DNA of 64,000 nt from a virus, in IMG/VR virus record IMGVR_UViG_3300027896_000001, positions 110,650-174,649 of that record, one strand, 5' to 3'. The notes below the pieces were generated by a model. The model had not been told where the DNA came from and did not search any database. It was given only the letters and a program-made list of their open reading frames with translations. Position numbers and translations under genes: made by a program. Shown here piece after piece: positions 33,438 through 62,800 of the stretch (the stretch's first letter is position 1; the number at the start of each line of letters is the position of its first letter).

Positions 33438-33518
33438 AAGCACAGCACACAAATCCACATTGATAGAAAGCGATTGTATCAGGTCTCTTCCTATCATTTG
33501 AATGAGTGTGCTGTGCTT
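33438..33518 (-). ncRNA. Rod-shaped structured RNA candidate
   Basis: 13-bp perfect terminal stem AAGCACAGCACAC/GTGTGCTGTGCTT, inner TGATAG/CTATCA helix, then a U run. Confidence 0.5.
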
Positions 33519-35571: not shown

Positions 35572-35588
35572 GAAAATCCTTTCTAAAA

Positions 35589-35662
35589 TCGGAGTGATAG
35601 GATTTGAACCTACGACTACCTGCGCCCAAGGCAGGTGCCCTACCAGGCTGGGCTACACTCCG
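35589..35662 (-). tRNA. tRNA-Pro (UGG)
   Basis: Cloverleaf: CGGAGTG/CACTCCG, anticodon loop CTTGGGC, TTCAAAT T-loop; CCA not encoded. Confidence 0.95.
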
Positions 35663-35664
35663 AG

Positions 35665-36316: not shown

Positions 36317-36352
36317 GAAGACCTCCTTTCTTTATTTCAGGTTTATTATTTT

Positions 36353-36424
36353 CTGGCGCCAACGGGCTCGAACCGCTAATAGGCAGGACCAAAACCTGCT
36401 GGCTTACCATTAGCCAAGGCGCCA
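36353..36424 (-). tRNA. tRNA-Gln (UUG)
   Basis: TGGCGCC/GGCGCCA, GCAGG-TTTTGGT-CCTGC, TTCGAGC T-loop. Confidence 0.93.
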
Positions 36425-36433
36425 ATAAAAATC

Positions 36434-37013: not shown

Positions 37014-37082
37014 AAATTCCTTTCTTCTAATCGATCATGGGCGGCATTTCAGCCGCCCCTCCTTTTGTTAAGGTAAGAAAAA

Positions 37083-37482
37083 TGGAGCTAGAGGGAATCG
37101 AACCCTCGTCCGCAGCAAAGTCAAAACCAGTCTCTACGTGTGTAGAAGGATTGTATATTTCAGAATTACTAATCCTACAACCTTATTCTGAAATGCAAGA
37201 ATGTAACTTCGGGCCGTTTCTTTCTCCTGCGCTTCACGGATCCCTACTCCGTGTAAAATGTTTTCAGGCAAGCCACGGATCAACCTGAAAATGCGCCATC
37301 TTTAGTTAGATGGCGACTGCGGAACCGACTCCGCACATCTCCGCGAAGGAGAGGGCGAAATCAAGCCCCATGATACTACCCTGTTTGTTGGCAGTTATCG
37401 TTTCTCGTTTTTTACGAGGCCAACGAGAATCCTCGACACGCTGCTCGAATCCCCTTTGCTACGTCGAAACCAATTTAGCCCC
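37083..37482 (-). ncRNA. ssrA: tmRNA
   Basis: 5' GGGGCTAAATTGGTTTCGAC, 3' GACGAGGGTTCGATTCCCTCTAGCTCCA (Ala-like acceptor and T arm), pk1 (GAGG/CCTC, TCTCGTT/AACGAGA), ATAACT-GCC resume site. Confidence 0.95.
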
Positions 37483-54024: not shown

Positions 54025-54029
54025 TCCTG

Positions 54030-54101
54030 CTGCAAGAATCCGATTCGAACGGACATCTATGGGTTATGAGCCCAATCGACATACCATTAGTCCACCTTGC
54101 A
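54030..54101 (-). tRNA. tRNA-Met (CAU), initiator-like anticodon stem
   Basis: TGCAAGG/TCTTGCA, GGG-CTCATAA-CCC, TTCGAAT. Confidence 0.88.
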
Positions 54102-57344: not shown

Positions 57345-57655
57345 TTTATTTCTTCAGGACATAGAGATTTCGCAATAACATCAGCGATATAATCGCACAT
57401 ATTGTATCTTTTTTTTCTTCGCGCAAATTCATGCGCATCGCATAAATAATGTCCAAATAAATGCGCTGCATGCCATTTGCTTGTTATTCCACGAACAGGC
57501 CTTACACGTATCTGATGTATTGAAGTTACGTCGCATCTGTCTGTTGTAAAAAATTTAACTATTCGTGGCGTCCCCAATGTTATGGAAGTTTGATAACTGA
57601 AATGTTTACCAAAGAGTTTTCTTAATTCTTTTTTAACCTCTAAGTATGACGACAT
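57332..57655 (-). CDS. Hypothetical protein (possible HxxGH metal site)
   Basis: AAHLFGHY; SD AAGGAG. Confidence 0.55.
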   Translation of the reverse strand: MSSYLEVKKELRKLFGKHFSYQTSITLGTPRIVKFFTTDRCDVTSIHQIRVRPVRGITSKWHAAHLFGHYLCDAHEFARRKKRYNMCDYIADVIAKSLCPEEIKWIR

Positions 57656-57676
57656 GAAGTTCTCCTTTAATTGAAG

Positions 57677-57750
57677 GGCCGGCCGCACCGCGCCCTTATC
57701 GTGCATTCGCAGTAGTGGTTATACGTTTGCACTTTACGGTACGACCAGCC
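57677..57750 (-). ncRNA. Hairpin RNA candidate (array C, unit 7)
   Basis: 15-bp stem GGCTGGTCGTACCGT/GCGGTGCGGCCGGCC with four G-U pairs; inner GTGCA/TGCAC. Confidence 0.6.
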
Positions 57751-57766
57751 GGATAAATAAAAAAAG

Positions 57767-57840
57767 GCCAGGTGCAACAAAGTTAAACCACATCCTGCAA
57801 GGACTGGTACAGCCTCAAGATATGGCAAAATGCACCTGGC
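57767..57840 (-). ncRNA. Three-way junction RNA candidate (array C, unit 6)
   Basis: GCCAGGTGCA/TGCACCTGGC; U run. Confidence 0.6.
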
Positions 57841-57857
57841 ACATGTTTTGTAAAAAA

Positions 57858-57933
57858 ATCGGCTGCATACTGCCGGTGGGGCGGTGACTGCGTGCGCTGG
57901 TAAGAAGCGCCGTTGGTCACGTATGCAACCGAT
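57858..57933 (-). ncRNA. Three-way junction RNA candidate (array C, unit 5)
   Basis: ATCGGTTGCATAC/GTATGCAGCCGAT; GTGAC/GTCAC; GCGCT/AGCGC. Confidence 0.6.
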
Positions 57934-57940
57934 AATTTTA

Positions 57941-58026
57941 ACAGGGGCGGGGCATACATTTGGACGATCTGCACAATCTCGCCATAAAAATTATGCCCTT
58001 ACTAGTTGTGCAACTCTTGCCCCTGT
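57941..58026 (-). ncRNA. Pseudoknotted RNA candidate (array C, unit 4)
   Basis: ACAGGGGC/GCCCCTGT; TGCACAA/TTGTGCA crossing GGGCATA/TATGCCC. Confidence 0.6.
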
Positions 58027-58037
58027 CGATTAGATAA

Positions 58038-58159
58038 GACCTTATTCTGACGGGCGCGATTGTTTTGCCATATTCAGCACCGGTAGAGATATGGCGCAGG
58101 GTGGTCTACCAACAGTTTCTAGAAAACTGTCCGCTCTGGCGGGACCGCCAGAATAGGTC
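58038..58159 (-). ncRNA. Pseudoknotted RNA candidate (array C, unit 3)
   Basis: GACCT(A)TTCTGGCGG/CCGTCAGAATAAGGTC; ACAGTTT/AAACTGT; H-type knot GGTAGA/TCTACC plus GCCATAT/ATATGGC. Confidence 0.6.
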
Positions 58160-58180
58160 ATAATTTACTGAAAATAGTCA

Positions 58181-58213
58181 GGGCCCAGGTTTTATTGCAA
58201 TCTACCCAGGCCC
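58181..58213 (-). ncRNA. Short hairpin (array C, unit 2)
   Basis: GGGCCTGGGT/ACCTGGGCCC, perfect only with G-U on the - strand. Confidence 0.4.
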
Positions 58214-58228
58214 CAACCAATCGTATCA

Positions 58229-58342
58229 AGACAGGCTCACCGCCCGAGGTTACCGGGCGAGTAGCGTCACGAGTAACGCCGGCAGGTTTTTAAAACACCT
58301 CTCGTAAGATGTTCGATTATCCCTACCTCGCTTCGCCTGCCT
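58229..58342 (-). ncRNA. Pseudoknotted RNA candidate (array C, unit 1)
   Basis: AGGCAGGC/GCCTGTCT; CGCCCG/CGGGCG; GCGTTAC/GTGACGC; long-range CGAGGT/ACCTCG and TACGAG/CTCGTG. Confidence 0.55.
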
Positions 58343-58351
58343 CTACACAAT

Positions 58352-58558
58352 TTACTTTCTATCGAGCAGTTTATATAGCGTTATTGACTGCCCGGTATTA
58401 TTGTCCTTAATCGTGATTTTCTCTCGGAAGCTCACGTCGTCCTCCGTGAGCTCTTTGTGTCCTAACAATACTATTTCCTCACCTTTGCGGACTTTATCCG
58501 CTTTGGTTTGGAAAACCTTCCACCAACCTACCTTCTCCATGACAGCGTAAAACGCCAT
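58352..58558 (-). CDS. Hypothetical protein
   Basis: SD AAGGA, preceded by the leader hairpin. Confidence 0.6.
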   Translation of the reverse strand: MAFYAVMEKVGWWKVFQTKADKVRKGEEIVLLGHKELTEDDVSFREKITIKDNNTGQSITLYKLLDRK

Positions 58559-58574
58559 GGTGATTCCTTTCTAT

Positions 58575-58594
58575 GCCCGTGCCGTAGCGTGGAC
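58575..58594 (-). promoter_or_regulatory. Repeated pre-SD leader hairpin, copy 1
   Basis: GTCC-AC-GC(TACG)GC-AC-GGGC just before the SD. Confidence 0.6.
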
Positions 58595-58600
58595 GGTGAG

Positions 58601-59410
58601 TTAGCATCTCTCTACATGAATCCGCGGTGAAACCTTACCATCGGCCCTGCCATGATTATAAACATCAACCAGCAAATCCAACCACTCTTGATCGCGGTCA
58701 CACCCACTGATTCCATGAATCATATTAGCGCACTGTTCGGTTTGCTCCATCATGGATGAGTGGTTGTAATGGTAATCGTTAATCAGTTGAAATGCCGCGC
58801 GTAGAAAGGCTCGCGAACTGATAGAAGTGGGAAACTTCGGAACCAAATCCTTTATTTGTTTGATAAAGGATATATAGACCCGGAAATCCGTTTCCTTGAA
58901 TTTATCATTCAATTCGCCACGCTGGAATGGAGTCCAGTCTTCGTTTTTGCGCCCTGCGCCTTGATGCATTAGGATGAGGCCAAAATCAATCGATATTGAA
59001 TTCTGGGTGATAAATTTCCCAAATTTCATATATCCCTCGAAACCCCAATCCACATAGGCCGCCAGGAAATCCCCGGACGTCCAAGGCTTTCTCAAACACT
59101 GTCGTTGAGCTAAATCGAGAATAGTAGGCTTTTTATCCACCAACACAAATCGTATCGGCAGACCATACGAGCTCAATGCGTATGACCTGTTCTGGCCGTC
59201 GATAATCCATAATTTCCGACCGTCCCAGAAACAATCGGCAGGGGAAAATTCGGCCCCCTGTTTCAATGCCGCTACGAGCTTGTTGACAAACGGCATATTA
59301 ATCAAACGATTCCATGAGAGTTGATTGAAATCGTTCCATTCTCGGGTTTCGTAAATATAACCCGAGACCTTGACTCCAAGACTATTCTTTTCCTTTTCCG
59401 TAAGAATCAT
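58601..59410 (-). CDS. ParB-N-like domain protein
   Basis: NR.IN...V..L, IIDGQNR..A, W...D. Confidence 0.65.
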   Translation of the reverse strand: MILTEKEKNSLGVKVSGYIYETREWNDFNQLSWNRLINMPFVNKLVAALKQGAEFSPADCFWDGRKLWIIDGQNRSYALSSYGLPIRFVLVDKKPTILDLAQRQCLRKPWTSGDFLAAYVDWGFEGYMKFGKFITQNSISIDFGLILMHQGAGRKNEDWTPFQRGELNDKFKETDFRVYISFIKQIKDLVPKFPTSISSRAFLRAAFQLINDYHYNHSSMMEQTEQCANMIHGISGCDRDQEWLDLLVDVYNHGRADGKVSPRIHVERC

Positions 59411-59426
59411 TTTAATCCCTTTCTAT

Positions 59427-59448
59427 GCCCGTGCCACATGGCGTGGAC
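59427..59448 (-). promoter_or_regulatory. Repeated pre-SD leader hairpin, copy 2
   Basis: GTCC-AC-GCC(ATGT)GGC-AC-GGGC. Confidence 0.6.
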
Positions 59449-61513: not shown

Positions 61514-61615
61514 GATTTTAGGCCTTTCTAACTTATCAATAATAGCTAAAAAAAAGGGCGCTTACAACGCCCTTAGCCATATCGGAGGCCTGCCGACATC
61601 AGAATTAAAAACTTT

Positions 61616-62800
61616 TTATTTTGTTATAATAAACTCACTATGATTACCAGAAATTGACATTAGATAAGCGCCTGTTGATAATCCCGATATTGGAAGATTC
61701 AGGATTCCGTTTTGGGCCAGATGTGTGGCTGAATAAATTCTTTTTCCAACAACATTGAACAGTTCAACCGTTAAAAGTCCGCCAGAAGCTTCCGGCAATA
61801 ATACGGTAACGTATTTTTTATTTACATTAATTCTGCATTTGCCGGAAATAGATTGGTTGAGATTGGACTGGCTAACACCGGTAATATCAAACTTTGAAGT
61901 CAGGATATCAGAAGGTCCAACGGCTACAAATACACCATCACTACAAGCTATAGACATTAACGCTCCGGTGGTATTTGAATTTTCCGGTATCCACACCATA
62001 CCATCGGAAGATGACAAAATAACGCCCTGATACCCCACTGCAACAAACTTACCATTACCAGCAGTAATAGAATTAAGACCTATAAGCGTTCCCGAATTTT
62101 GTTGTGTCCAAGTTTTAGCGTCTGGAGATGTTAAAATCGATCCACGAGTTCCAACGGCAACAAATTGCTTATAGTAATAAACTACTGATTGAAGAATGCT
62201 GTTTTTAATTGACGTATTTTGCGTAGTCCAGGTTATACCATCAACGGATGTCGCTGTTACGCCAAATGCGTATTGGGAAGGAGCGTTGCCATAAAGGGAA
62301 TCACCAATCCCCACTGCGACAAATTGTCCGTTACCATAACATATAGCTTTAAAATTATTGGTAGTATTAGTGTCTATTAAATTCCATGAAGTTCCGTTAC
62401 CATTAGTGGAAATTGCAAGAACTTCACGGCCAATAGCAACACACTTACCGCTGGCGCAAACCGCAGTACAAAGAGGGCGTTTTTTTTGATGCCATCTGAC
62501 GATCCAATCGCTGGTTATAGTGGCGCGTGTATATATTCCACTATCTCCACCAAAGACTATATAACCATTAGCACAACAAACTAATCCTGCAATTCCCCAT
62601 GAAAAAGGTATTGGTTCACAATACACCCAATTTATACCGTCATTAGAAGATTCCGCATGGCTATCCCCAAGAGCCATAAATTCATTATCATGAGCAACAA
62701 ATTTTAATTGATGAGTAGGGCTTTGTCTTTGCCATACGGTTTGCCCAAAACACATCGATACAAAAGCCAACGATAAAATGATTAGAATTGAGTTTTTCAT
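61616..62800 (-). CDS. Secreted beta-propeller (BNR-like repeat) protein with T9SS-type C-terminal sorting domain
   Basis: Signal peptide ending ...CFG|Q; L.SI..G.G.FVAVG..G.IL.S.DG..W repeats; VELFN..GK.I ... LSTG.Y...I C-terminus. Confidence 0.75.
   Translation of the reverse strand: MKNSILIILSLAFVSMCFGQTVWQRQSPTHQLKFVAHDNEFMALGDSHAESSNDGINWVYCEPIPFSWGIAGLVCCANGYIVFGGDSGIYTRATITSDWIVRWHQKKRPLCTAVCASGKCVAIGREVLAISTNGNGTSWNLIDTNTTNNFKAICYGNGQFVAVGIGDSLYGNAPSQYAFGVTATSVDGITWTTQNTSIKNSILQSVVYYYKQFVAVGTRGSILTSPDAKTWTQQNSGTLIGLNSITAGNGKFVAVGYQGVILSSSDGMVWIPENSNTTGALMSIACSDGVFVAVGPSDILTSKFDITGVSQSNLNQSISGKCRINVNKKYVTVLLPEASGGLLTVELFNVVGKRIYSATHLAQNGILNLPISGLSTGAYLMSISGNHSEFIITK

Follow-up and report, generated by a model that had tools for sequence, protein, structure and literature searches.

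Genomic context and coding capacity of the locus

The window analysed here is a 64,000-nucleotide stretch comprising bases 110650-174649 of a 174,649-bp IMG/VR virus record from an uncultured phage; positions refer to this window unless the genome is named. The record's direct terminal repeat spans only 127 bp (genome 1-127 and 174523-174649) and probably arose where the assembly of a circular or circularly permuted genome overlaps itself, so that true phage ends are unlikely; the closeness of the locus to the end of the record therefore carries no meaning. Within the last 35 kb, the minus strand holds 64 of the 74 crude gene calls, and the locus itself is a 695-nt gap (57656-58351) between two minus-strand genes. 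The surrounding genes, from upstream to downstream, are the following.

58601-59410, minus strand: ParB-like gene (269 aa), two genes upstream of the array; matches phrog_12305 with E = 5e-15
58352-58558, minus strand: orphan gene (68 aa) upstream of the array, with a strong Shine-Dalgarno sequence; the array starts directly past its stop codon
57332-57655, minus strand: orphan gene (107 aa) downstream of the array, with a strong Shine-Dalgarno sequence, AAAGGAG, at 57662-57668

The ParB-like gene probably shares a transcription unit with the array. The 20 nt preceding the start codons of the 68-aa and ParB-like genes are nearly identical (GGGCAUAGAAAGGA/G...; 58560-58580 and 59411-59431, minus strand), and the ParB-like protein carries DGQNR at a position where 30 aligned homologues have a nearly invariant DGQHR. 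In one public gene call the downstream gene starts at 57706 and is 124 aa long, an extension (57656-57706) that would overlap the last structural unit of the array; the 107-aa start, with its strong Shine-Dalgarno sequence, is the better call. The neighbouring proteins had no match in Pfam, PADLOC, NCBIfam or PDB sequences, and PHROGs contributed only the 'ParB-like' label. A feature search of the ESM Atlas yielded only sub-threshold leads, for the 107-aa protein.

The gap had been described from its letters as lacking a credible ORF, and closer analysis agrees with this description. None of the internal ORFs, which encode 32-63 aa, is preceded by a Shine-Dalgarno sequence, and their codon-usage scores are low, as are those of the flanking genes; a homologue search with the longest internal ORF found none.

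Strand-specific folding into seven modules

When the whole region was folded as RNA, the minus strand reached -284.2 kcal/mol (z = -11.8) and the plus strand -231.8 kcal/mol (z = -3.2), whereas with DNA parameters the two strands were equivalent (z = -7.0 and -6.2). An asymmetry that is seen with RNA but not with DNA parameters points to G-U pairs as its source, U1 below being one example, and an asymmetry based on G-U pairs in turn indicates a minus-strand RNA, neither a DNA element nor a plus-strand RNA. When the entire genome was scanned on both strands with RNALfold z-scores, the locus ranked second among 700-nt windows, behind only a retron-like array at genome 73.7-77.4 kb, and structures with z <= -4 covered 482 nt of the locus on the minus strand as opposed to 185 nt on the plus strand. 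The minus strand resolves into seven closed units, given here as U1 to U7 in 5' to 3' order with z-scores from 200 dinucleotide shuffles per unit.

58220-58351, minus strand: U1, 132 nt, a 16-bp closing stem around three hairpins, starting 1 nt past the 68-aa stop codon; MFE -59.4, z -5.9 on the minus strand versus -0.7 on the plus strand; 12 of 47 pairs are G-U; mean pair probability 0.94
58175-58219, minus strand: U2, a 16-bp hairpin with a 13-nt loop; z -3.9 on the minus strand, -1.8 on the plus strand; 5 of 16 pairs are G-U; pair probability 0.98
58037-58159, minus strand: U3, 123 nt, a 15-bp closing stem around four hairpins; z -4.9 on the minus strand, -3.6 on the plus strand; contains one arm of an 11-nt complement (58063-58073)
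57940-58027, minus strand: U4, 88 nt, with a 9-bp closing stem; z -3.7 on the minus strand
57859-57933, minus strand: U5, 75 nt, with a closing stem of 12-13 bp, followed by UUUUUUU (57852-57858); z -6.1 on the minus strand; pair probability 0.98
57767-57840, minus strand: U6, 74 nt, with a perfect 10-bp GC-rich closing stem, followed by C and UUUUUUU (57759-57765); z -6.1 on the minus strand, -3.3 on the plus strand; contains the other arm of the 11-nt complement (57820-57830)
57677-57750, minus strand: U7, 74 nt, with a 15-bp G-U-rich closing stem; -36.9 kcal/mol, z -2.3 on the minus strand, plus strand unfolded (z +1.1); pair probability 0.99
58160-58174, 58028-58036, 57934-57939, 57841-57857 and 57751-57765, minus strand: AU-rich linkers, predicted to be single-stranded

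All seven closed units proposed in the initial annotation were thus recovered on the minus strand, with z-scores of -2.3 to -6.1, each individually significant against its dinucleotide shuffles, and with spacers of 0-17 nt between them. In the ensemble, the mean probability of the MFE pairs is 0.85-0.99 across units, 93% of the expected base pairs fall within units, and no pair between units exceeds p = 0.36; the suggestion that the region folds as one large RNA consequently gains no support from secondary structure. The partition is also visible in base composition, with a GC content of 54% in the modules (610 nt) versus 15% in the linkers (62 nt). All seven units differ: no similarity among them and no copies elsewhere in the genome were detected, Tandem Repeats Finder at a minimum score of 30 reported no tandem repeats, and self-blastn gave no direct repeats longer than 11 nt. 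Resting on one sequence and thermodynamic models, the analysis indicates that the gap very probably holds a real minus-strand structured RNA region built of insulated modules.

The 13-nt loop of U2 contains a perfect 8-nt palindrome, AUUGCAAU, at 58193-58200, through which two copies of the hairpin could form a loop-loop (kissing) homodimer. A palindrome of 8 nt in a 13-nt loop has a chance probability of about 2%, before correction for the number of loops examined.

Searches for relatives and for known RNA kinds

No relative of the locus was found in any database searched. A blastn search of the locus against a phage collection gave no match, and exact 17-mers from U1, U2 and U4 had only chance matches in IMG/VR. 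Searches anchored on the neighbouring proteins were comparably empty: scans with the ParB-like protein, alone or aligned with its 40% homologue, led to no related locus, and in a search of 5.8 billion protein clusters the only matches of the ParB-like and 107-aa proteins were to themselves. An exact-sequence cluster look-up placed the ParB-like, 107-aa and 68-aa proteins only on the phage's own contigs, which are the same sequences in two assemblies with differing start calls for the 107-aa protein. An exhaustive HMMER search did return distant homologues of the ParB-like protein, 1922 in all, of which the closest is encoded on a 780-bp ENA contig and shares 40% identity. Fragments of related phages (31.7 and 39.6 kb) were found at 70% identity through the phage's reverse transcriptase (RT), and additional distant fragments through a 999-aa protein; the locus is absent from all of them. 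Host inference through a T9SS-like protein in GTDB genomes gave no result.

Comparison with Rfam at the gathering threshold identified only tRNAs and a tmRNA in the window, with no match in the array region. The tmRNA (37080-37482, minus strand; 137 bits to RF00023) has an unusually long tag peptide, and genes for tRNA-Pro, tRNA-Gln and tRNA-Met lie on the minus strand at 35588-35663, 36352-36425 and 54029-54101, respectively. A cmscan of 57400-58700 at E <= 10 produced four chance-level matches to unrelated families, with no GOLLD, ROOL or tRNA among them, and aragorn detected nothing tRNA-like at 95% or 80% of its default thresholds and noise alone at 70%.

Several further candidates were tried and rejected. 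Mimicry of rRNA was set aside after the best blastn match to the E. coli rrnH operon scored 22.1 bits, which is chance level given the best matches of 100 shuffles (median 20.6 bits, 95th percentile 25.3 bits); a 9-nt sarcin-ricin-loop-like sequence in U1 (UACGAGAGG) and an 11-nt 16S-like sequence in U6 (AUGUGGUUUAA) were likewise at chance level against shuffles. Integron attC sites and REP/MITE-like repeats were dismissed by eye, the units being unique and the core-site motifs absent.

Terminator-like units and the probable transcription of the array

Two of the seven units carry features of transcript ends. The closing stems of U5 (12 bp) and U6 (10 bp) are each followed directly by a run of seven T, and both units look like elaborate terminators in the predicted fold. 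A consensus terminator scan misses them because the hairpins hold approximately 50 nt of internal structure. A promoter scan found no sigma-70-like promoter within the array. The last unit, U7, stops 8 nt short of the Shine-Dalgarno sequence that precedes the 107-aa gene, for which it is probably the 5' leader; additionally, the U-run after U6 can pair weakly with this Shine-Dalgarno region in the ensemble (p 0.25-0.36).

Closed minus-strand units of 74-88 nt with runs of 7-9 U directly behind them also occur at 33440-33516, 45728-45815 and 45976-46060, and the recurrence of the design at these three sites implies that the phage uses it repeatedly. The unit at 45728-45815 directly precedes the Shine-Dalgarno sequence of another gene. 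A further closed unit with a U-run was observed at 61557-61672 (minus strand), and with U5 and U6 included the set spans 74-116 nt with GC-rich closing stems of 9-12 bp. The recurring units have branched interiors that are mutually unrelated and carry U-runs 7-9 long; elaborate termination is one possible role for them, and marking the 3' ends of stable RNAs is another.

Proposed function of the modules

The analysis above shows on which strand the structure lies, that it is modular, that its modules are insulated from one another, where the U-runs stand and that coding capacity is lacking. The reading that is tentatively preferred, as the best fit to the strand, the modularity and the U-runs, is that the locus is an operon-end multi-module RNA whose modules would act in trans as protein-binding RNAs, either whole or cleaved at the AU-rich linkers. 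In the proposed sequence of events, one minus-strand transcript would cover the ParB-like gene, the 68-aa gene and the gap downstream of them, where it would form a chain of seven different, autonomously folding modules on short AU-rich single-stranded linkers. Within this chain, U1-U4 would be complex multi-branch modules, U5 and U6 would be module-sized hairpins whose runs of seven U end or attenuate the transcript and shield its 3' end, and U7 would serve as the leader for the 107-aa gene. The AU-rich linkers might be cut by a host enzyme of the RNase E type, or the chain might be left whole, and in either case stable small RNAs could result that bind proteins in trans during infection, acting as sponges, decoys or scaffolds. 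No particular binding partner is indicated for the modules. Efficient termination at U5 and U6, if it occurs, would leave the transcription model incomplete, since the 107-aa gene has no visible promoter.

Cis roles as stabiliser, attenuator and translational control would be enough to account for U5-U7, with no need for a function in trans, and the most serious alternative extends such roles to the entire array, which would then be a long 3' UTR plus a 5' leader. Under that alternative, U1-U4 would guard the upstream mRNA from 3' exonucleases, U5 and U6 would be tandem terminators or attenuators timing read-through into the 107-aa gene, and U7 would control the translation of that gene. The position of the array between same-strand genes agrees with this, as do the runs of seven U directly after U5 and U6, the lack of a detectable internal promoter, the placement of U7 8 nt before a Shine-Dalgarno sequence, the weak pairing of the U-run with that sequence, and the similar unit and U-run that stand directly before another gene's Shine-Dalgarno sequence at 45728-45815. 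However, the approximately 390 nt of multi-branch structure in U1-U4 exceed what mRNA protection would need in a densely packed genome, and the standard terminator scan calls neither U5 nor U6. A purely cis-acting array is accordingly regarded as somewhat unlikely.

Under a second alternative, the region would be a single large 'ornate' RNA like GOLLD and ROOL, its modules packed together by tertiary or kissing contacts and possibly assembling into homo-oligomers. The array resembles GOLLD and ROOL in its size of about 0.6-0.7 kb, its phage origin and its density of structure (PMC12286853), the palindrome in the U2 loop offers a possible self-kissing contact, and the same strand carries a tRNA-Met gene 3.6 kb downstream. 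The initial annotation had also reported an exact 11-nt complement between U3 and U6, through which the units might interact. The complement itself exists (57820-57830 and 58063-58073), but the proposed pairing between units does not appear in the ensemble, where its probability is approximately zero. A match of equal length occurs in only 3.6% of shuffles (P about 0.04, marginal), part of the complement stems from a 9-nt direct repeat, AGATATGGC, plus a local hairpin, and both arms are paired in local helices of their own units.

The clear pseudoknots described in three units were not confirmed by a two-layer fold, which yields second-layer helices of 4 bp in U3 and U4 only and none in U1, U2, U5, U6 or U7. 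The helices in U3 and U4 were equalled by 5-6 of 150 shuffles. A possible 8-bp crossing helix in U4, UUGCACAA/UUGUGCAG, would contribute -8.8 kcal/mol and must replace approximately 11 kcal/mol of nested helices, which makes it energetically unfavoured. With no Rfam match at E <= 10, no long-range helices in the predicted fold, hardly any GNRA loops, the arms of the 11-nt complement buried locally, and internal runs of seven U that would tend to shorten the RNA, a single ornate RNA is considered improbable.

The ParB-like gene two genes upstream and the richness of the region in inverted repeats recall a DNA-level element, such as a centromere or binding region for the ParB-like protein, a replication origin or a packaging site. 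The inverted repeats all differ, however, and provide no repeated binding-site consensus, while the strand asymmetry obtained with RNA parameters alone and the heavy use of G-U pairs speak for an RNA; this reading is very improbable.

The phage genome also encodes an RT (PF00078, E = 1.7e-19), and the long closing stems of the modules resemble the a1/a2 closure of retron RNAs, so the modules could be conceived as extra templates for this retron-type enzyme. Five units of the retron-like array (genome 74631, 75294, 75581, 76230 and 77374, minus strand) share a hairpin of 5-8 bp with a UGUUUCG loop, which the phage RT may recognise; a CGUUUCG variant of the loop occurs at genome 90896. A genome-wide pattern and stem scan showed this hairpin to be absent from the array locus (genome 168306-169000), and the array has neither sequence nor k-mers in common with the retron-like array, the RT-proximal RNA or the orphan RNA. 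The signature hairpin, shared sequence and any long msd-like hairpin are thus all missing from the array. Templates are additionally disfavoured by the reliance of the stems on G-U pairs, since a cDNA copy would bear A-C mismatches and fold worse. The role of RT template is therefore highly doubtful.

Least credible of all is the reading that grew out of the initial anti-defence hypothesis, in which the array mimics type III antitoxins in the manner of pseudo-ToxI and neutralises ToxN-type host toxins: the succession of a non-coding RNA, terminator-like hairpins and a small gene superficially recalls type III loci and phage pseudo-ToxI is a precedent (PMC3475682), but the array has no tandem repeats or recurring units, its 45-132 nt units are dissimilar, its pseudoknots are not established, and no ToxN/AbiQ/CptN-type or other defence-family protein was found nearby with Pfam, PADLOC, NCBIfam and PDB, a partner in the host being possible. 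The broader idea of an anti-defence decoy, for which the type III analogy served as the specific basis, may still hold.

Significance of the locus

As far as the predicted structures allow, the orphan RNA locus appears to be real and striking, and its novelty is plausible. A more far-reaching version of the multi-module RNA reading, which is judged rather unlikely, is that the array constitutes a phage 'aptamer cassette' in which unrelated modules on one transcript would each neutralise or redirect a different host protein or, relatedly, that it represents a new self-assembling class of ornate RNA. The targets of such a cassette could include, for example, a defence nuclease, an RNase or a translation factor, and the cassette would then be the RNA counterpart of the small anti-defence protein clusters in phage accessory regions. 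To our knowledge, phage counter-defence is known almost wholly through proteins; the examples made of RNA are pseudo-ToxI and RNA anti-CRISPRs (Racr), both of them simple mimics of repeats. If real, a cassette of seven different folded RNAs would broaden the roles presumed for phage non-coding DNA and would be a source of natural protein-binding or self-assembling RNA modules. With a retron-type RT and a retron-like RNA array, a tmRNA and other structured loci, the phage appears to be unusually rich in RNA, and such an RNA-rich phage is a good target for transcript mapping.

Comparison with known systems

The individual features of U5 and U6 invite comparison with intrinsic (Rho-independent) terminators, which they resemble in that a run of seven U comes immediately after a GC-rich closing stem. 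The usual loop of an intrinsic terminator is 3-8 nt long. In contrast, the hairpins of U5 and U6 span 74 nt with a branched interior of approximately 50 nt and depart from the rule on loop size; furthermore, the two units stand in tandem with a gene immediately downstream that has no visible promoter.

Within the same genome, the nearest comparison is the retron-like array, which lies on the same strand and also has long closing stems; the two are the most structured loci of the genome. The array studied here differs in having neither the UGUUUCG-loop hairpin nor long msd-like hairpins, and in a structure that needs G-U pairs at the RNA level.

Among RNAs proposed to counter defence systems, ToxI consists of near-identical 36-nt repeats in tandem, which ToxN processes, and phage pseudo-ToxI is a known precedent for its mimicry (PMC3475682). 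The present array resembles ToxI and pseudo-ToxI as a phage-borne non-coding RNA array for which a role against a defence system has been proposed, and is unlike them in having no repeats and no toxin gene, with units of 45-132 nt that are all different.

ROOL and GOLLD are RNAs of phages and prophages that are often located near tRNA islands and that use kissing loops and A-minor contacts (PMC12286853). Like these RNAs (RF03087 and RF01998), the array is phage-encoded, non-coding, densely structured and within the range of 0.6-0.8 kb, and its genome contains tRNA genes. Unlike them, it has no covariance-model match at E <= 10, no long-range helices and no supported pseudoknots. Whereas ROOL and GOLLD each form one interlocked fold, the array strings insulated modules together through AU-rich linkers and has U-runs in its interior.

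A different kind of comparison is provided by polycistronic stable-RNA clusters of large phages, of which the T4 tRNA cluster with the small stable RNAs C and D is an example. No unit of the present array is tRNA-like, the nearest tRNA gene is 3.6 kb away, and the release of its modules by host RNases would be by analogy with T4-type clusters. The two nevertheless have their architecture in common, with several different compact RNAs placed head to tail on one strand and separated by short spacers, and the genome studied here likewise carries tRNAs and a tmRNA.
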